Source of the DNA: Desulfohalobiaceae bacterium
GTDB taxonomy: Bacteria > Desulfobacterota > Desulfovibrionia > Desulfovibrionales > Desulfothermaceae
Assembly: GCA_036628655.1 (NCBI GenBank)
Contig: JAZKRN010000098.1
Location: 1-10,212, forward strand
DNA length: 10,212 nt
Direction: 5' to 3'
In this document: piece after piece, positions 433 to 10,212 of the stretch
Numbering within the stretch: the stretch's first letter is position 1
Layout of the letters: every line of letters begins with the position of its first letter
Program-made: the position numbers and the translations under genes
Notes under the pieces: model-generated
What the model saw: the letters and a program-made list of their open reading frames with translations, nothing else
Told to the model about the DNA's origin: nothing
The model's database searches: none

Positions 433-753
433 TTAGCTCTGCATGGGAAAGCCGGCGTCCTGCCAGGCCTTTACACCCCCCTCAATGACCTTCACGTTCA
501 GATAGCCTTCATCCATTAATCTCTTGGCCAGACCGGCCGAAGTGTTTTCCTGGGGTCAGTTGCAATAAAGGATGATTTCCTGATTTGCATCAATGCTGCC
601 CAGATGGTTGCGGAAGGAAGGCCAGCTCACGGAGCCTTCCAAAAGCAGATTGGCGCACTTGCTCTCGTCCCCGTAGGCGCAGACCAGCTTGGCCCGTCCG
701 GACCGGGTTTCTTCCCAGGCGTATTGGGGTGAAATGCGTGTGATTTCAGTCAT
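433..753 (-). CDS. Rhodanese-like (single-domain sulfurtransferase) protein with an in-frame UGA at 556-558; candidate selenoprotein, about 106 aa if UGA is read as Sec
   Basis: The track ORF 556-753 ends ...IILYCN at a TGA. The same frame continues for 40 more codons (PQENTSAGLAKRLMDEGYLNVKVIEGGVKAWQDAGFPMQS) to a TAA at 433-435. The N-terminus ISPQ..AWEE..., the YC active-site position and the GY.NV...GG..AW..AGFP C-terminus all fit a rhodanese fold on both sides of the TGA. RBS GGGAGG lies 5 nt upstream of the ATG at 753. Could alternatively be a recent nonsense pseudogene. Confidence 0.5.
523..542 (-). promoter_or_regulatory. Candidate bacterial SECIS stem-loop immediately downstream of the in-frame UGA
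   Basis: mRNA reads UGA, 13 nt, then CUUC-GGCC-[GGUCU]-GGCC-AAG. This gives a 4-bp GC stem plus 3 more pairs with a bulged C, and an apical loop containing G and U about 25 nt after the UGA, within the usual bSECIS distance window. Confidence 0.35.
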
Positions 754-1002
754 AATACCTCCCTTTTGCTATGGGGGTTTTGATATTCTTGGAGTGGAAC
801 CATGTGCACCCGTTTCGCGCGACGGTGAAAAATACCCCTAAGTACAGGAATCGTATACTATGGTGAGGGAAAAACAATGTCGGGTCAAGGCGGTTGCTTA
901 TTAGGTGCTCGAGTCTGAGCCATCATCGCGCCCGCCCCTTTGTTCCAGCGCTGACCTAGTTATCCTGCTCACGCTGTTTCCTGCTAGGAAGCCGGCGTTT
1001 CC

Positions 1003-1050
1003 ATCTCCGACATCCGACTTCCGATCACCGATCTCCGACCTCCGGTCCCC
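1003..1050. repeat. Array of six degenerate TCCGAnn heptamers, the inverted counterpart of the 36-63 array
   Basis: cTCCGAca TCCGAct TCCGAtca CCGAtc TCCGAcc TCCGgtcccc. Positions 1028-1045 (CCGATCTCCGACCTCCGG) are the reverse complement of 44-61 (TCGGAGGTCGGATATCGG) with one mismatch. GGTCCCC at 1044-1050 versus GGGGACC at 60-66. Confidence 0.6.
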
Positions 1051-1757
1051 AAATTGCTGGCACTCAGGGGTATCCTTCTCATCATATGCGTTCTTTGACT
1101 GGAATCGGAGCGGCAAAATCGGAGGAAAAAACGCTGAACTGTGAACGCAGTAGGTTGAATTCCGAGCGGAGACGGAGAACGCAAAAAAGGACCCAATATG
1201 TGCATTAGTAATGTTTATTAAATAGTAAATATTATTATTTAGAATGAAGATTTTTTTGTGATGTCAAGCACGTGTCTCGTCTTACCAAATAAAAACGTGA
1301 TTGGGACAATACTTAAGTTGAAGCGGGAAGAAATACATAAGCTTTTGATCTTGTTGCATTACATATCAATACTGGAGAAAAGAGACAGCGCGTAACTCAA
1401 ACATTAACGTGGGTACTTTTAAAAGTTGGCAGTGTAGGCAATTATAAAGAAAATTTGTGAACAAATTTACTCAAACATGTTTGAGATTGAGATAAGATAA
1501 AGAGATTTTGTTACAAGAATGTATATAACAAATAATTGATGAGCGATGATTTGTACTATTTGTTTGCAATTTTGCTGTATTAATTTGTAAGAGAATTTGC
1601 ATTAAAGATTGTGTCCATATTGCCGATAACCACTGTACGTGAATCTTATTTCCTTGAAGGTGGTTTTGGAAGGCTAGAGCTTCAGAAAAGGATAGGGAAT
1701 GATTTTGTTTGACGCACTTTTTTATCATTTTGTTATGGTAAATTGGAGGACAAAGGG

Positions 1758-1785
1758 TTGACATGATTGTCGACTTGATTATTAT
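1758..1785 (+). promoter_or_regulatory. Sigma70-like promoter candidate inside the AT-rich island (TTGACA-16 nt-TATTAT)
   Basis: TTGACA at 1758-1763, 16-nt spacer, TATTAT at 1780-1785. No convincing ORF downstream, so it may drive a small RNA or be fortuitous in AT-rich DNA. Confidence 0.2.
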
Positions 1786-2286
1786 GAAATTTGTGAGGGG
1801 ATGCATTGCGTTTTGTCGCAAGGGATAAGGCTTTCAATTCTTTCAAAGTTATAGACTTGCAGCTATAGTGCAGCTTTAATATAGACATGGTTTAATTGGA
1901 AACACAACACTCATTAAGTTGCAATGATTGAAAGCGTTTTTCTTTTGGCTGAAGCTGAGATCATACATGTAAAGCTGTTGCACACATGAACGGAACTCAG
2001 GAGTTACTTCATAGTTGAACTGATGAATGTGTATATGTTTTGGTGAAGGAACATATGTGGTTAAGCAGGTTCAATCAAAACTCATTAGAGTGTTCTGTAG
2101 ATCACAGATACTGAATATTTTTTTGCAGACGCATGAGGGTGTAGGAGTTGTTCGGGAATAATCATACAGAGAAAGATGTCGAGCGCCTCATCTTTTGGAA
2201 AACTAAGCTCAAACAGGCGAGGAACTTGAAATGAAAGTGCGTATGCGTTTTTAGGAAACCTCTAAAAATACGTGAAAGGCGCCATT

Positions 2287-2511
2287 ATGTTCACAGGAAC
2301 ATGCCGCATTGTGTGGGAGTGCCCGAGCTGTGGGACAATCTATGGCGGCGTCGTTGAAGGCGGCGTGGTCAAGCTCTGTCAGTGGTGTCCCCATCGCGGT
2401 GTTTGCGATGCAGCTGAGCGGGATGATATCCCCAGAGCGGAGCGGCTGTGTCAGAGCTCCGAATGCATTTTGGCCCAGGTACTGAACGGATACTCTCATG
2501 CAAAGATTTGA
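2287..2511 (+). CDS. Small zinc-ribbon-like protein (two CxxC pairs: CPSCG...17 aa...CQWCP), 74 aa
   Basis: The track ORF 2272-2511 starts at a GTG with no RBS. The in-frame ATG at 2287 has AAAGG 7 nt upstream. The Cys pattern WECPSCG / KLCQWCPH is typical of zinc ribbons. GC-rich codon use like the core genes. Confidence 0.4.
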   Translation: MFTGTCRIVWECPSCGTIYGGVVEGGVVKLCQWCPHRGVCDAAERDDIPRAERLCQSSECILAQVLNGYSHAKI

Positions 2512-2579
2512 CGAATAGCAGCCTGTTGAAAAAGTCCTTATCAGGCAAAGCGTTCAAAAATCTCGTGGGTCAAGCGCGA

Positions 2580-2647
2580 CCCGGCACTCACTTTCGCCCC
2601 CGAAGTTCAATATATTACGAGCAAACATAAAAAAAGTGAGTGCCGGG
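2580..2647. repeat. Perfect 15-bp inverted repeat (CCCGGCACTCACTTT / AAAGTGAGTGCCGGG) separated by a 38-nt AT-rich spacer
   Basis: Arms at 2580-2594 and 2633-2647 read directly. No T-tract follows, so it is not a classical terminator. Possible protein binding site or long RNA hairpin. Confidence 0.55.
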
Positions 2648-3225
2648 CAAGGTCGTAGTTTACCCCGCCTGCCCCGTAGCTCAGCCTTGTGATGCTACCG
2701 GGGTGAAACCTTCTTTTGTTTCACTGGGGCGTAGTGAGCCTCCATGAGAGCTTGAACTTTTAGAAGCAGCGTAGCACGTGTACGATTTTCAACGCCCTGA
2801 TAGGGTGCAGTTGTTTCAGCGCACAGGCTGTATCCGCTCTGGCCAGTATCGAGACGTACTCCTTCGGGTTGATCCGAATGCATTGGCCGCTCCGCAAGGA
2901 CATGCGTGACCGCGATGGCACACTAAGTCCGTAAACAGGTATACGTACGACCACCACCTTTCCGGATAGCCAATCCGGATAATAGCGGCCAAAACGTATT
3001 TCATGCAGGGCCGCAGCGAAGAATGAGCTCCGGAGATTGATTGTTTGAAAACGTATCGCGAAAAGCGAATCACAAGGATTCCTTTGACAATCGGACCACT
3101 TGTACAGCCCTGCCGTTTTTGTGCCCCTGAGCTTGGGCCGTGCCCCTTTTTGGGACGAAAGCTGGCCACGATGGCAGCAATCGGCTCCCAGGAAGGGCTG
3201 ATGAGAAAGCCTGCGCAGGAAATCT

Positions 3226-3259
3226 GGGGGATGCGGTGATCCGTATCCCCCTTTTTTTT
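3226..3259 (+). terminator. Strong Rho-independent terminator
   Basis: GGGGGATGCGG-tgat-CCGTATCCCCC forms an 11-bp stem with one G.U wobble, followed by T8 at 3252-3259. It ends a roughly 700-nt stretch with no convincing CDS. Confidence 0.7.
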
Positions 3260-3307
3260 GTCTGAGGGGCCTTGGCCGGGTAAGCGTTCTTCGTTCCCTG
3301 TTATTGG

Positions 3308-3336
3308 TTTGTCGATTTGGCTTGAAATGGTATACT
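3308..3336 (+). promoter_or_regulatory. Candidate sigma70 promoter for the MucR-family gene with an extended -10 (TGgTATACT)
   Basis: TG at 3328-3329, TATACT at 3331-3336, weak -35 TTTGTC at 3308-3313 with a 17-nt spacer. Implies a 5' UTR of about 135 nt. Confidence 0.3.
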
Positions 3337-3478
3337 CAAAATGAATGAATGTGTACCTCCTCGTCATGGAGACAGCCCACGCAGCGGCGGTTCGATTACG
3401 GGAATCCGCGCGGAATGGAAGCAAAGATTCGGGAGGCGTCATTCATCCATATATCTCTGATCAATAAGGAGGGCAGGC

Positions 3479-3883
3479 ATGGACGAGTACATGAAAGAAT
3501 CCCTTGAGATCGCCAAGGCACAGGCGAAAGTCCGGAATATGACCGAGGACGAGATCGCTTCGCTGGTGCAGAACCTGGCGAACAGCCTCAGGAATCTGGA
3601 GGCGGGCAAGCCGGCAGAAGGATCCAGGCAGCATCAGGAGCCGGCTGTGGATCCCAAGAAGGCTATTCGTGAAAAATCGGTCATCTGCCTGGAGTGCGGT
3701 GCGTCCTTCAAGCTCCTCTCCAAGAAGCATCTCGCCCAGCACGAACTTACTCCGCAGGAGTACAAGGAGAAATGGGGCTTCAAGAGCAATCAGGCCCTTG
3801 TTGCGAAGTCCCTCTCCAGGAAGCGCAGGCAGAAGATGCAGGAGATGGAGCTCTGGAAGCGGCGCGGGGTCGTTAAGGCGTAG
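3479..3883 (+). CDS. mucR: Ros/MucR family zinc-finger transcriptional regulator
   Basis: C-terminal motif ICLECGASFKLLSKKHLAQHELTPQEYKEKWGF matches the Ros/MucR signature (CLECG..FK.LKRHL..H...TP.EYREKW) and is followed by a basic tail. RBS AAGGAGGG lies 6 nt upstream of the ATG. Confidence 0.85.
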   Translation: MDEYMKESLEIAKAQAKVRNMTEDEIASLVQNLANSLRNLEAGKPAEGSRQHQEPAVDPKKAIREKSVICLECGASFKLLSKKHLAQHELTPQEYKEKWGFKSNQALVAKSLSRKRRQKMQEMELWKRRGVVKA

Positions 3884-4008: not shown

Positions 4009-4144
4009 GGGGCACCTTGTCCCGCCCCTGCCTTTTCTCCACTCGAAACCATTGTGCACGGACGCGGGTGGTTGTCTTGACATATCAAAATTGTTGCGAT
4101 GACGTATGCAGGAACACACGAAACGCCACCCTGCGAAGGAAAGA

Positions 4145-5059
4145 ATGAAAGCGGTAATGCGCAAAGCGATCCACCCAATTCCCCTGCTCGGGATTTGCCT
4201 CCTCGTGCTGCTGCTCGGCTGCGAGGGCGTCAATCTGCGACAGGCCAAGGAGGCCGGCGAGGACGCGGTCAAGGCGGTCACCCTGTCCGAGGAACAGGTC
4301 CGGGAGCTGGCCCGGCGGGCCGCGGAGAGGGCGGACGAGGAGCACGAGCTCGCCCCGCCCGAAAGCAGCTACTCTGGACGCCTCGAGCGCCTGGTCCGGG
4401 AACACGGCGAGGAGGAGGGCCATTCCTACGAATACAGGGTCTATCTCTCCTCCAAGGTGAACGCCTTTGCCATGGCTGACGGCTCCATACGGATCTACAG
4501 CGGGCTGATGGACAAGATGAGCGATCAGGAGCTTCTGTTCGTGCTCGGGCACGAAATGGGGCACGTGGTGGAGAACCACATTATGAAGAAAATGCGGGTG
4601 GCCCTTGCGGGCAGCGCCCTCCGCAAGGGGATCGCCTCCCAGGAGAACGTGATCGGCGAGCTTGCGGAGTCGCAGCTGGGCGGGCTGGTCAACAAGCTCA
4701 TCCAGGCACGGTTCTCCCGGGAGGAGGAAGAGGAAGCGGACCGATACGCTGTGCGCTTCATGCAACAGGAGGGGTACAATCCCCACAAGAGCGTCTCCGC
4801 CCTGAAGAAGCTTGGGGCCATGAGCGCAGGGAGCTCCCTCCTCTCCAGCCACCCCGCCCCGAAGGCGAGGGCCGAGAAGGTGAAGGAGCAGCTCCGCTCC
4901 GGGTTGGAGGACGAGGAGGATACCGGGATCTGGGACACGATTTGGGGACTGTTGCGGACAATCGGTCACTGGGTGGTCGATGCGATCGCCTGGGTGATCG
5001 ATCTGATTCCGGGGGTGGAAATCCCCTCCGAAGATCCCCAAAAGGCGATGGAGGTCTGA
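4145..5059 (+). CDS. M48-family zinc metallopeptidase, lipoprotein (YcaL/LoiP/BepA-like)
   Basis: HEMGH (HExxH) motif, NAFAMADGSIRIYSGLM and a lipobox LLLGC after MKAVMRKAIHPIPLLGICLLVLLLGC. The track ORF begins at 4106, but the ATG at 4145 has GAAGGAAAGA just upstream and yields a proper lipoprotein signal peptide. Confidence 0.8.
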   Translation: MKAVMRKAIHPIPLLGICLLVLLLGCEGVNLRQAKEAGEDAVKAVTLSEEQVRELARRAAERADEEHELAPPESSYSGRLERLVREHGEEEGHSYEYRVYLSSKVNAFAMADGSIRIYSGLMDKMSDQELLFVLGHEMGHVVENHIMKKMRVALAGSALRKGIASQENVIGELAESQLGGLVNKLIQARFSREEEEEADRYAVRFMQQEGYNPHKSVSALKKLGAMSAGSSLLSSHPAPKARAEKVKEQLRSGLEDEEDTGIWDTIWGLLRTIGHWVVDAIAWVIDLIPGVEIPSEDPQKAMEV

Positions 5060-5568: not shown

Positions 5569-6123
5569 GTGCTCACCGTCGACTCCGGCATCCCCCACGA
5601 GATCAGGCAGCGCTTCGAGGATGAATACGCCGCGATCCGCTCCCTCGTGCCGGATTCCAAGGCCTTCGACTCCGCGCGCAAGCACGTGTGCTTCAACAAC
5701 CGCTTGCGCACCTCTGCCGGGCGGGCAATCCAGGACCGGAACAACCGGCACTGCTGGCGGATCGAGCTCAATCCCAAATACTATGCGACATACGGCCTGG
5801 AGCGGGTGATCGGGACCTACAGGCACGAGCTCGCCCATGTGGCGGCCTGGGTCTTTTATCGGGAGCCTGGGCACACCAGGAACTTCAAACGGTTCTGCGA
5901 GCTGTTCGGCGGCACGATGAATCCCGACCAGGCCGGGAAGCGGGCATCCGCCAACGCCACAACAGAGTATCTAACCACTCCCCCCAAGTGGCGCTACACT
6001 TGCCCCTCCTGCGGGCTCACTTTTACCAGAAAACGCCGGCTGCCGAATAAGACCATCGAGCGGGCCTGGTGCGTTCAGTGCCGAACACCGGCTCGCAAGC
6101 TTCTGAGGGAGCAGTTGCGGTAG
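5569..6123 (+). CDS. sprT: SprT-like zinc metalloprotease with a C-terminal zinc ribbon
   Basis: HExxH in TYRHELAHVAAW, then GHTRNFKRFCELFGG, and a CPSCG...CVQC C-terminus typical of SprT-family proteins. GTG start at 5569 with GGAG 5 nt upstream. Confidence 0.8.
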   Translation: MLTVDSGIPHEIRQRFEDEYAAIRSLVPDSKAFDSARKHVCFNNRLRTSAGRAIQDRNNRHCWRIELNPKYYATYGLERVIGTYRHELAHVAAWVFYREPGHTRNFKRFCELFGGTMNPDQAGKRASANATTEYLTTPPKWRYTCPSCGLTFTRKRRLPNKTIERAWCVQCRTPARKLLREQLR

Positions 6124-6663: not shown

Positions 6664-6712
6664 ATTTCATCCGCTATGGAGCTGTGTAGACACTCCGCTA
6701 CCGCTGGGAAAA
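6664..6712. repeat. Dispersed repeat copy 1, overlapping the pilin stop codon
   Basis: ATTTCAT..TGTGTAGACACT-ccgcta-CCGCTGGGAA. The conserved blocks are shared exactly with 9393-9440. The near-palindromic core GTGT-AG-ACAC covers the pilin TAG at 6698-6700. Confidence 0.55.
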
Positions 6713-7153
6713 CAACAACCAGAACATTCCCTTGCCTTTACAGAGGGATCCACTGCATTCGTCCTCGCTTATGGCTTTTGCGGAAGAGTTGACTGAATAG
6801 TATTTATCACCATTATGATGCCATGCACATATCTCAAAAGTATCGTTGGAACCGGAATATCCAATTTCCACATTGTCTGAGGACTCAAAATCAAGAGCTA
6901 AAGTGTCGATTTCAGTTGGGCTCCCTCCATTGAAATAGGAATCTCCTTGTGGAACAGAGTGTCCTTCTAAACTGGTTTTGGTCGTTTTTAACTCGCTCTG
7001 TGCAGCTGTATTCATTGCCGATGCCCTGTGTTGCGAATAGAGCGAGACCGCGATTGAGGCCAGAATGGCGATGATGGCAACTCCAATTATCAATTCGATC
7101 AGCTCGAATCCCATCTGCCGCAAGATTTGCGTGCTTAGTGCCCTTTTTTGCAT
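6698..7153 (-). CDS. Type IV prepilin-like protein with N-terminal cleavage/methylation motif, 151 aa, PilA-like with C-terminal Cys pair
   Basis: MQKRALSTQILRQMG|FELIELIIGVAIIAILASIAV shows the class III signal: Gly at -1, Phe at +1, Glu at +5 and a hydrophobic helix. C-terminal Cys residues (EICAW, DECSGSLC) could form the pilin disulfide loop. Strong RBS AAGGAGG 5 nt upstream of the ATG. The gene is AT-richer than its neighbours. Confidence 0.8.
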   Translation of the reverse strand: MQKRALSTQILRQMGFELIELIIGVAIIAILASIAVSLYSQHRASAMNTAAQSELKTTKTSLEGHSVPQGDSYFNGGSPTEIDTLALDFESSDNVEIGYSGSNDTFEICAWHHNGDKYYSVNSSAKAISEDECSGSLCKGKGMFWLLFSQR

Positions 7154-7576
7154 CCTGCCTCCTTATTTCCCCCATGTATGAGAACATGATTCATGATTGC
7201 AGGCTCTAGTCTTCACCAATGCAATTGCTGTTCCTTCAATCTTGACTTTGAAAGAATCGATTCTTCAGCTTGAAATGAATAATCTCTTTGCCGGTATATC
7301 TCAGTTTCTGTCCCATGGGCCATTCGTTGCTTGTCGAAATCTTTGAATCAGTCGTTCCAAAAAATTGGTCTTTGGTGACAGGATACGTCACCTTCTCCAC
7401 ATCTGAGCGTGTGCAATGCCACGTGATCCTTATGTCCCAGTACACACGCTTCAGGATTCCCGGCCCCTATAGGTCAGGCTTGCGTCTGGTTCTGGAGAAG
7501 GGTATTGACCCCAAAGGCGCGGACACAGACTGAACCCTTCCAACAGGCCGTCCGATTCAGGAGAAAAGGAGGAAGA

Positions 7577-8020
7577 ATGGCAGCGATCCCTATATGGCTC
7601 GTCTGGCTCATTGTTGCGATCGCCCTGGTCCTGGTGGACATCTTCGTGTTGGGGCTGCAGTTCATCCTGGTCGTCACCGGCATCGCCGCCCTGATTGCGG
7701 GGGCAGTCTCCGTAGCCGGCCTCGGTTTCACCGGACAGATCTGGGCCTTTGTTCTGGGCGTGCTGGTGCTGGTCCCGGTGTGGATCTTTCTTTCGCGCTC
7801 CGGGTTTTTCAAAAAGAAGCCCGGGCCCCGGGAACAGGGCTGGGAAAAGGGCGCCGAGGTGGAAGTGGTGCGGCAGGGGGACCGTCTGGTGGGCAAGCTG
7901 AAAAGCGACTCCTTCCCCATACGACTTGCCGACGACAGCCAGCCCCGGGAAGGGGAGCGGCTGATCGTGGACCGGATGGAAGGAATCACCCTGATCGTGT
8001 TCCGACAGGAAAACAGGTAA
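7577..8020 (+). CDS. NfeD-like membrane protein (short NfeD/YbbJ-type partner of an SPFH protein)
   Basis: Three hydrophobic helices followed by a soluble C-terminal beta domain (GAEVEVVRQGDRLVGKLK...EGERLIVDRMEGITLIV). Ends 16 nt upstream of the SPFH gene. ATG at 7577 has AAAGGAGGAAGA upstream; the track ORF from 7505 lacks an RBS. Confidence 0.8.
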   Translation: MAAIPIWLVWLIVAIALVLVDIFVLGLQFILVVTGIAALIAGAVSVAGLGFTGQIWAFVLGVLVLVPVWIFLSRSGFFKKKPGPREQGWEKGAEVEVVRQGDRLVGKLKSDSFPIRLADDSQPREGERLIVDRMEGITLIVFRQENR

Positions 8021-8036
8021 ACGCAAAGGATTGCTT

Positions 8037-9038
8037 ATGACCGGAGTATTCGACCTTTTGGGTGTGGGGCTGATTGCGGCGATCATCGTCGGAACCGGAG
8101 TGATCGCGTTCATCGCGAAGGGGCTGTTCATCGTCCAACAGAGCGAGGCCGTGGTTGTGGAGCGCTTGGGAAGCTACAAGAAAACCCTTGGCCCTGGAAT
8201 CAATTTCATCATTCCGGTGCTGGATCGTCCCAGGCCCATCAAGATACGGCGCTATGAATCGAGCATGGGCTCCAAGGAGCTCCAGGAGCGGGTGATCGAG
8301 GAGACCAAGATCGATACCCGGGAGACGGTGCTGAACTTTCCCGCCCAGCCGGTGGTGACCAACGACAACGTCTCCGTGCAAATGGACGGAGCGCTGTATT
8401 TCCAGATCCAGTCACCGAAGAAGTCGGTCTACGAGGTGGAGAACCTGGTCCAGGCCATCGAGGTCCTGACCAAGACCACCCTGCGCGCCGTGGTCGGCGC
8501 GCGGGAGCTGGACGTTCTGTTCTCCTCCAGGGACGAGATCAACAACGAGCTCCAGAAGGTCATGGACGAGGCCGGGGATAAATGGGGCGTGAAGGTGAAC
8601 CGGGTCGAAATCCAGGATATCCAGCTTCCGGAGGAGGTCGAGGAGGCCATGCGCCAGCAGATGACCGCGGAACGGAAGCGCCGGGCCACGGTCACCGAGG
8701 CGAACGGATACAAGGAAGCCCAGATCCAGCAGGCGGAAGGGGACAAGAGAGCGGCCATCGAACGGGCCCAGGGCGAAAAGGAGGCCGCCGTCAAGCTGGC
8801 GGAGGGCGAAAAGGGCGCCATCGAGAACGTGCTCCAGGCCGGCAGGGAATTGAATGTCACCCTGGATCAGTCAATGGTGGTGAACTACCTCATCGCCCAG
8901 AAGTATCTGGAGAAACTGCCCTCCATCGCCAAGGACGGCGAACGGGTCATCGTGCCCTACGAAGCGACCGGGATCCTGGGAAGCATCGAGTCTATCCAAT
9001 CCCTGTTCAACGGGAATCTTTCGATCAAGCAGACATAG
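8037..9038 (+). CDS. SPFH/band-7 (stomatin/QmcA/YbbK-like) membrane protein
   Basis: N-terminal transmembrane helix, an SPFH core, the characteristic VKVNRVEIQDIQLPEEVEEAMRQQMTAERKRRA and an Ala/Glu-rich coiled coil, then VNYLIAQKYLEKL. Forms an operon with the upstream NfeD-like gene. ATG at 8037 has AAAGGA 8 nt upstream. Confidence 0.9.
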   Translation: MTGVFDLLGVGLIAAIIVGTGVIAFIAKGLFIVQQSEAVVVERLGSYKKTLGPGINFIIPVLDRPRPIKIRRYESSMGSKELQERVIEETKIDTRETVLNFPAQPVVTNDNVSVQMDGALYFQIQSPKKSVYEVENLVQAIEVLTKTTLRAVVGARELDVLFSSRDEINNELQKVMDEAGDKWGVKVNRVEIQDIQLPEEVEEAMRQQMTAERKRRATVTEANGYKEAQIQQAEGDKRAAIERAQGEKEAAVKLAEGEKGAIENVLQAGRELNVTLDQSMVVNYLIAQKYLEKLPSIAKDGERVIVPYEATGILGSIESIQSLFNGNLSIKQT

Positions 9039-9876: not shown

Positions 9877-9911
9877 AAAAAAGGGGTTACGGCTTACCCG
9901 TAACCCCTTTT
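9877..9911. terminator. Bidirectional Rho-independent terminator
   Basis: A6, then GGGGTTACGG-cttac-CCGTAACCCC (perfect 10-bp stem), then T4. Confidence 0.75.
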
Positions 9912-10212
9912 ATCATGGTGGAGACGATGTCCATCACATTAGCATATCAACTTACTGTAATTTATATATTTATTTTGTAACTATATAAAAAATACCCCCC
10001 AAATCTACCCCCATAGGCAAGCTGCTCTCATCATTGAGGAATGGGTGCTCTTGAAAGAGGGAGGAGTGGGGCAAATAGTAATAGTAGAACTATCTCCTTC
10101 AATATCAAATTGTTATACAGCATCAAATTTCCATTTTTCCGCTTGCTAGGGATATGCCCTACGCGGAACTTCTCCAGAAGTCCTCACAGACCAAATATGA
10201 GCCTCTTCTTGT

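Follow-up and report, generated by a model that had tools for sequence, protein, structure and literature searches.

We examined a 10,212-nucleotide contig of a Desulfohalobiaceae bacterium (JAZKRN010000098.1, assembly GCA_036628655.1), the whole of which is referred to here as the window, with a focus on a short rhodanese-like gene on its minus strand at positions 433 to 753. The open reading frame (ORF) from 753 to 556 reads MTEITRISPQYAWEETRSGRAKLVCAYGDESKCANLLLEGSVSWPSFRNHLGSIDANQEIILYCN and then meets a TGA at 558-556, directly after ...IILYCN. Beyond this TGA, the unchanged frame gives PQENTSAGLAKRLMDEGYLNVKVIEGGVKAWQDAGFPMQS, a further 40 codons that extend up to a TAA at 435-433. An initial annotation of the window, made by a model from the letters and a list of ORFs, had described this ORF, its TGA, the 40-residue continuation and the TAA, and the coordinates and sequence proved to be as it stated. 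It proposed that the gene encodes a candidate selenoprotein in which the UGA is read as selenocysteine (Sec), with a hairpin resembling a Sec insertion sequence (SECIS) downstream of it. The features of the gene are as follows.

433-753, minus strand: complete coding sequence of a predicted single-domain, rhodanese-like selenoprotein of 106 residues (ATG at 753-751, putative Sec-UGA at 558-556, TAA at 435-433)
758-763, minus strand: GGGAGG, a Shine-Dalgarno-like motif 4 nt 5' of the ATG, read from the sequence and kept in the related loci L001 and L008
562-564, minus strand: codon 64, TGC (Cys64), predicted to follow the central beta-strand IILY directly, at the position of the catalytic residue in canonical rhodaneses
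556-558, minus strand: in-frame UGA, codon 66, probably read as Sec (C-N-U motif) and kept in all five alleles
436-555, minus strand: the 40 codons 3' of the UGA, covering what remains of the active-site loop (PQENTS), the next helix and the strand/helix with the GGxxAW motif in the rhodanese fold
523-542, minus strand: hairpin of the bacterial SECIS (bSECIS) type within the coding sequence, composed of CUU (542-540), a bulged C (539), GGCC (538-535), the loop GGUCU (534-530), GGCC (529-526) and AAG (525-523)

The rhodanese domain spans the stop codon, as the initial annotation had argued. When U is replaced by C, the 106-residue read-through product matches the Pfam family Rhodanese (PF00581) with 31.6 bits versus a gathering score of 22.2, and this match covers residues 53-99 and hence crosses the stop. 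The 65-residue fragment alone matches no Pfam or other family, and the 40-codon stretch after the UGA, taken by itself, matches positions 73-101 of the same Pfam profile. A promoter and terminator scan around the gene gave nothing over the shuffle expectation; the sole "terminator" called nearby was the SECIS-type hairpin read on the wrong strand.

Conservation on both sides of the UGA

Our set of close relatives comprises 22 related loci that represent five distinct alleles, with 90 variable sites and 72-94% amino acid identity. One of these loci, L001, lies in an uncultured Desulfohalobiaceae metagenome-assembled genome (MAG; GCA_964395575.1) and is the closest named relative. A genome contig scan contributed one locus and a metagenome contig scan four near-identical loci, and a word-indexed protein search returned two proteins of 65 residues, at 92% and 72% identity, both of which end at the identical residue. 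All five alleles across the 22 loci retain both the TGA at codon 66 and the frame beyond it up to the TAA, and similarity among the close loci collapses right after the TAA. Ratios of nonsynonymous to synonymous substitution (dN/dS, Nei-Gojobori) are 0.12-0.25 downstream of the UGA (codons 67-106) and 0.05-0.22 upstream of it (codons 1-65), with dS reaching ~1.

The initial annotation had allowed for a recent nonsense pseudogene. In that case, a Cys codon (TGC or TGT) would have mutated to TGA, and the frame beyond it would not have had time to decay. TGC and TGA do differ by a single base, and in public assemblies every related contig is annotated with the 65-residue fragment alone, as a hypothetical protein. 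However, the TGA is common to alleles separated by a dS as high as that given above, and the 40 codons beyond it contain neither a frameshift nor an extra stop. Nor are the related loci assembly copies of one sequence, as their variable sites attest, and well over 100 clusters (50% identity) stop at the identical column. The low dN/dS after the UGA, similar to that before it, indicates that the 40 downstream codons are under protein-level purifying selection and excludes a recent pseudogene, an explanation to which we assign virtually no chance of being correct.

Alternatively, translation could end at the UGA and the 65-residue product be functional; conservation farther downstream would then stem from an RNA element or from a peptide translated on its own. 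In favor of this, the five alleles do not differ at a single one of the 29 nt right after the UGA, a pattern expected of a cis-acting RNA. Past the hairpin, however, most changes in the downstream codons are synonymous, and distant homologues (described below) keep the rhodanese C-terminal motifs while their nucleotides diverge. In addition, the 65-residue fragment lacks half of the rhodanese fold as well as any family match, and that frame offers no start codon or ribosome binding site for a separate downstream ORF. We therefore consider termination at the UGA highly improbable.

The wider diversity of the family was drawn from an exhaustive search of cluster representatives and from contig look-ups. 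Among 1.84 billion cluster representatives, 441 (50% identity) matched a profile built from the N-terminal 65 residues, and most of these end at query position 65 or 63. We then tallied 264 family proteins, combining the N-terminal profile matches with a profile search that used read-through sequences. Nearly half of these (128/264) stop after [FL]YCx, which corresponds to the UGA column of the window gene, and 30/264 stop two residues before that, after the Y, at the Cys64 column. Full-length C-x-C proteins with Cys at the UGA column account for ~31 of the 264 (e.g., P0188, P0189 and P0190) and C-x-S proteins for 26/264. The remaining forms of interest are C-x-W (5/264) and W-x-W (1/264), in which TGA was translated under another genetic code. 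Column 66 alternates among Sec, Cys and Ser, and the family thus displays the Sec/Cys pairing used to define selenoproteins. In distant loci (L023-L034; ~40-50% identity), read-through of the UGA restores a common C-terminus, for example FYCA-U-PAEATSAGQAARYQGQGYTNAVALKGGVEAWEAAGYPM, and recovers the motifs FYCA-U-PxEATSAG...GGVEAW...GYPM. The checks that the initial annotation had proposed for orthologues, namely retention of the UGA and downstream frame and the presence of Cys at this column in homologues, thus came out in its favor in close and distant loci alike.

A third alternative is that the UGA is decoded, but not as Sec. Reassignment or read-through, either genome-wide or dependent on context, would then insert Trp, Gly or Cys by means of a suppressor or near-cognate tRNA, and the hairpin would be a generic stimulator of read-through. 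The database calls that translate the family TGA as W (CxW and WxW) are in line with this. Against it, UGA serves as an ordinary stop elsewhere in the window: TGA terminates the M48 peptidase gene and does not occur in frame within any of the six other annotated genes. The GC content of ~55-60% is unlike that of known code-4 or code-25 lineages, and in family genes without TGA the column alternates with Cys (and Ser), never with Trp or Gly. Two further points against non-Sec decoding, treated in later sections, are the G-[G/U] feature and spacing of the hairpin loop, which are as in SelB-type SECIS elements, and the annotation of the closest curated family as a selenoprotein. Taken together, these points leave non-Sec decoding with a small chance of being correct.

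Two variations within the family were also recorded. Locus L026 (739-1160) contains two in-frame UGAs (FY-U-G-U-P), a second one standing at the catalytic-Cys column, where the 30 tallied proteins mentioned above end; in a UxU gene of this type, both codons would have to rely on a single hairpin, placed in register with the second UGA. Separately, N-terminal leaders resembling signal or lipoprotein sequences are present in family members P0004, P0006, P0218 and P0247 (e.g., MKRRFYLVFVLLLVGACASS). Because of these leaders, some Cys-x-Sec rhodaneses of the family are probably exported; the window protein has no such leader.

The hairpin downstream of the UGA

The mRNA can form the hairpin drawn in the initial annotation, which begins 13 nt after the UGA and places its GGUCU loop at a UGA-to-loop distance of 21 nt. 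It is encoded by the codons for S-A-G-L-A-K and comes out as the structure of lowest energy (-8.2 kcal/mol) when the local 26-46 nt are folded. Published bSECIS criteria specify a loop of 3-9 nt, an upper stem of 4-16 bp, a UGA-to-loop distance of 16-37 nt and a minimum free energy of -7.5 kcal/mol or lower, and the consensus has a G within the first two positions of the loop, with G or U as the usual next base (PMC13188914, Fig. 2). With a loop of 5 nt that starts GGU, a stem of 4 bp (plus 3 bp past a 1-nt bulge) and the distance and energy given above, the window hairpin falls within all of these limits, and the earlier statement that its loop carries G and U at the distance expected for a bSECIS holds.

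The hairpin is conserved among relatives. A 7-bp helix with a 5-nt loop occupies identical columns in 12 of 12 distinct sequences, in which the loop reads GGUCU, GGUCA, GGUCG, GGGCG, CGUGC, CGGGU or CGUGU. In this alignment, 86.9% of cells are paired; shifting the 3' arm by 1-3 columns lowers this share to 27-49%. The observed covariation score was not reached in any of 500 shuffles, and this outcome was unchanged when the clade of the window was left out. The most informative pair, at columns 27 and 39, is GC in six sequences, CG in three, UA in two and AU in one, and is unpaired in none; its two members are the third position of a Ser/Ala codon and the third position of an Ala codon four codons on, both synonymous. 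Such compensatory changes in distant homologues bear out the conservation that the initial annotation had called for, and they also count against a pseudogene.

A covariance model (R1), built from nine distant sequences only and without the clade of the window, was searched against both strands of the 10.2-kb window. It gave one significant match, at 511-564 on the minus strand (30.4 bits, E = 5.4e-6), with the next match at 7.4 bits, and so singled out this site. R1 is not a pure test of structure, because the coding-sequence signal is also contained in the model.

Cys homologues differ in whether they keep the hairpin. In P0188 (L036, 1353-1682, and also L037; FYCAC-LDEASSAGQA), TGC stands at the Sec column and a perfect SECIS-type hairpin, CUGCC-GGUCA-GGCAG, is kept in the family register, whereas in P0119 (L035) the hairpin is lost. 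The P0188 hairpin looks like a fossil SECIS left after a recent Sec-to-Cys conversion. The upstream neighbor of P0188 is a separate gene for a YgaP-like transmembrane-domain protein (PF11127).

The active-site loop, its proposed chemistry and the surroundings of the gene

To place the two residues of the C-N-U motif within the rhodanese fold, we used a structure model of the natural CxC homologue P0189 rather than of the window protein itself. The AlphaFold2 model, computed from a 38-sequence alignment, has a mean predicted local distance difference test score of 87.1 and a predicted template modeling (TM) score of 0.80. Its central strand comprises residues 72-76 and is followed by C77-A-C79-P-H-E, with a helix beginning at residue 83. 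In a Foldseek search of the PDB, the top matches of this model were all rhodanese domains, with TM-scores of up to 0.71. Because C77 directly follows the central strand in the model, its counterpart C64 is predicted to be at the canonical catalytic position, with U66 two residues into the loop. This agrees with the placement in the initial annotation, as does the loop length: in HMMER alignments to solved rhodaneses, the target has to be gapped by 2 residues at C-N-U-P-Q, consistent with a loop 2 residues longer than in GlpE-type proteins. In these alignments, the catalytic Cys was paired with C64 in one case and with U66 in another.

Cys64 is invariant in a 14-sequence family alignment and also across the CxU, CxC and CxS forms, while column 66 varies among U, C and S. 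Two further Cys residues are found in the N-terminal half: C25 (in LVCAY; codon 25, 679-681, minus strand) is invariant in the 14- and 38-sequence alignments, and C33 (in E-x-K-C; codon 33, 655-657, minus strand) is common in Sec forms and often replaced by Phe or Trp in Cys and Ser forms.

Based on these comparisons, we conclude that UGA codon 66 very probably encodes Sec, and we are highly confident that the gene at 433-753 on the minus strand specifies a 106-residue single-domain rhodanese-like selenoprotein. Across a large family, selection has kept the UGA, the downstream frame and the hairpin, and homologues without Sec carry Cys at the matching column. From this pattern, we infer that selenium is in fact inserted at codon 66. 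The reading as a candidate selenoprotein with a SECIS is thus supported by the comparisons of orthologues, Cys homologues and the hairpin and by the covariance model.

Several observations weigh against this conclusion or limit what individual lines of evidence can contribute. No tRNA genes lie within the 10.2-kb window, and no sel genes are present among its ORFs. The folding energy of the hairpin is unremarkable relative to shuffled sequences, with z-scores of -1.1 (26 nt), 0.0 (46 nt) and -0.5 (72 nt) and an overall range of 0 to -1.3, and the 72-nt fold favors another structure over the hairpin. As the energy alone is within chance, the weight is carried by conservation and covariation across relatives. 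Even there, only the outer stem pairs are informative, because the inner three pairs are fixed by conserved Ala and Gly codons, and the run of nine invariant third positions over the hairpin in the close alleles is suggestive only (permutation p ~0.10). An Rfam search of the whole window with all families at E values of up to 10 gave no match at 433-753, a null result that we consider uninformative rather than negative because the library cannot cover the diversity of bacterial SECIS elements. Since P0188 keeps the hairpin without a UGA, the hairpin alone is not diagnostic of Sec. Furthermore, the window protein does not reach the curated cut-off of its best family match, NF041203 (115 bits), and the Cys-Sec selenenylsulfide chemistry considered next is something that we purely infer.

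We considered how a Sec residue at this position could be inserted and used. Following the standard bacterial pathway, UGA codon 66 would be decoded by Sec-tRNA(Sec) delivered by SelB, and SelB would be recruited by the hairpin at 523-542, which has its GGUCU loop 21 nt past the UGA. As the most likely chemistry, Cys64 at the end of the central strand would carry or accept sulfane sulfur, and Sec66 in the loop would act as its fast nucleophilic or resolving partner. The two residues would then cycle through a Cys-S-Se-Sec selenenylsulfide, which would make the protein a rhodanese with redox activity or a role in persulfide processing, as opposed to a plain thiosulfate sulfurtransferase. Because C64 is invariant while column 66 varies among U, C and S, we favor C64 as the primary sulfur carrier and U66 as an accessory residue. 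In the papers that we read, we found no experiment on this family or on a Cys-x-Sec pair in a rhodanese active-site loop.

A more far-reaching, tentative idea, which we regard as somewhat doubtful, is that these proteins form a distinct and widespread subfamily of very small Sec-rhodaneses, absent from all curated models, whose elongated, acidic C-x-U loop performs a chemistry new for rhodaneses, for instance as a selenenylsulfide-based persulfide/polysulfide reductase or as a selenium relay. The proposed subfamily, of which at least 441 clusters match the N-terminal half, has the signature RIS...LVCAY.DE.KC...[FL]YC-x-U-P.E.TSAG, and CxU, UxU, CxC and CxS forms all occur. Judging from P0188 with its SECIS-type hairpin, the subfamily may be undergoing ongoing Sec/Cys interconversion.

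If the Sec assignment is right, the gene represents a genuine stop-codon recoding event missed by automatic annotation, and recognizing it corrects the 65-residue "hypothetical protein" calls and adds one selenoprotein to the selenoproteome of the organism. A literature search on Sec use in Desulfohalobiaceae found nothing relevant. At 106 residues, the protein would also be compact and convenient for studying how a Cys-x-Sec pair works within a rhodanese loop.

The rest of the window contains the following genes, none of which has any relation to selenium metabolism.

3479-3883, plus strand: ROS/MucR regulator, divergent from the rhodanese gene
4106-5059, plus strand: M48 peptidase with a signal-like N-terminus
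5569-6123, plus strand: SprT-like zinc-ribbon protein
6698-7153, minus strand: type IV pilin-like protein
7505-8020, plus strand: membrane protein in the NfeD position, with no family match
8031-9038, plus strand: SPFH/Band 7 protein

The neighbors of the rhodanese gene vary by clade and include MucR together with an HExxH protein, a DUF4440 protein, a major facilitator superfamily transporter, a histidine kinase, a hemerythrin and a YgaP-like transmembrane protein. Because the neighborhoods differ between clades, they provide no functional lead, and we drew no operon inference from them. In L001, the gene downstream of the rhodanese gene (4109-4663) encodes a 184-residue protein with a metalloprotease-like HELVH (HExxH) motif and no Pfam match. 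This gene adjoins the rhodanese gene in both the L001 and L008 lineages, and a homologue in the window would begin near position 150 and run off the left end.

Between the rhodanese and MucR genes, the ~2.7-kb interval at 754-3478 contains no convincing long ORF and has an AT-rich middle (GC 0.37-0.41 at 1000-2500). It is ~85% identical to the matching interval of locus L001 in the Desulfohalobiaceae MAG, except in a few blocks of indels; the sole gene call there in relatives is a 74-residue Cys-rich protein (CxxC...CxxC), and Rfam gave no match over the interval. Near the other end of the window, a strong GC-rich hairpin followed by UUUU lies at 9880-9916 (AAAAGGGGUUACGG-CUUAC-CCGUAACCCCUUUU). 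It looks like a bidirectional intrinsic terminator, although our simple terminator scan did not call it. Weak Rfam matches to GibS and MIR405 at the same positions were rejected as spurious, being caused by the GC-rich hairpin.

Comparison with known selenoproteins and rhodaneses

The SECIS of Escherichia coli fdhF is the SelB-binding hairpin of the formate dehydrogenase H mRNA. When folded, the fdhF sequence resembles the window hairpin in several respects: it lies in the coding sequence just past the UGA, has a small apical loop with GGUC and a bulged pyrimidine in the 5' arm, and spans ~20 nt from UGA to loop, compared with GGUCU at 21 nt in the window. The stem sequences, however, are unrelated, and the upper stem in the window is shorter, at 4 bp (7 bp with the pairs past the bulge).

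With the single-domain thiosulfate sulfurtransferases of the GlpE/PspE type (PDB 1gmx), the window protein shares its predicted fold, its size and a catalytic Cys directly after the central strand, and Foldseek matches the P0189 model to 1gmx and other rhodaneses. It differs in its active-site loop (C-N-U-P-Q-E-N-T-S), which is 2 residues longer and is acidic or neutral, without the usual Arg or Lys. It also has a second chalcogen residue, the predicted Sec, and the extra conserved Cys residues 25 and 33.

Rhodanese-related selenoproteins have been described before. A Sargasso Sea study lists a rhodanese-related sulfurtransferase selenoprotein family. A report on the deltaproteobacterial symbionts of Olavius algarvensis describes rhodanese-related sulfurtransferase selenoproteins, including a UxU form (PMC1976440). 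These are likewise small rhodanese selenoproteins of sulfate-reducing Deltaproteobacteria (Desulfobacterota), and UxU forms like this one also occur in the present family, whereas the window protein has Cys rather than Sec at column 64.

The closest known relative is the NCBIfam family NF041203, "rhodanese_LYCAU, rhodanese-related (seleno)protein", which is the best match of the window protein (E = 2.6e-17, 62.6 bits, or 55.8 bits with X at the Sec position). It is also the best match of ten other clade members, comprising both Sec and Cys forms, with 49-73 bits. Like the window protein, NF041203 has a single rhodanese domain, an L-Y-C-x-U motif (ILYCNU in the window and ILYCAU in the L008 allele) with Sec two residues past the catalytic-position Cys, and the same C-terminal half. 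The window protein differs in that it aligns only to positions 66-124 of the 126 in the profile, is shorter by ~20 residues and carries a conserved N-terminal half of its own (RIS..A....LVCAY.DE.KC). The initial annotation had called a Cys-x-Sec rhodanese unusual; in the sense of new, this does not stand, as the CxU type is already known from NF041203. Because its score is below the curated cut-off, and because it is shorter and has an N-terminal half of its own, we place the window gene, on sequence grounds, in a divergent sister clade of the known CxU ("LYCAU") selenoprotein type rather than in a new kind of system. The CxU rhodanese type thus appears to reach well beyond the curated NF041203 model.

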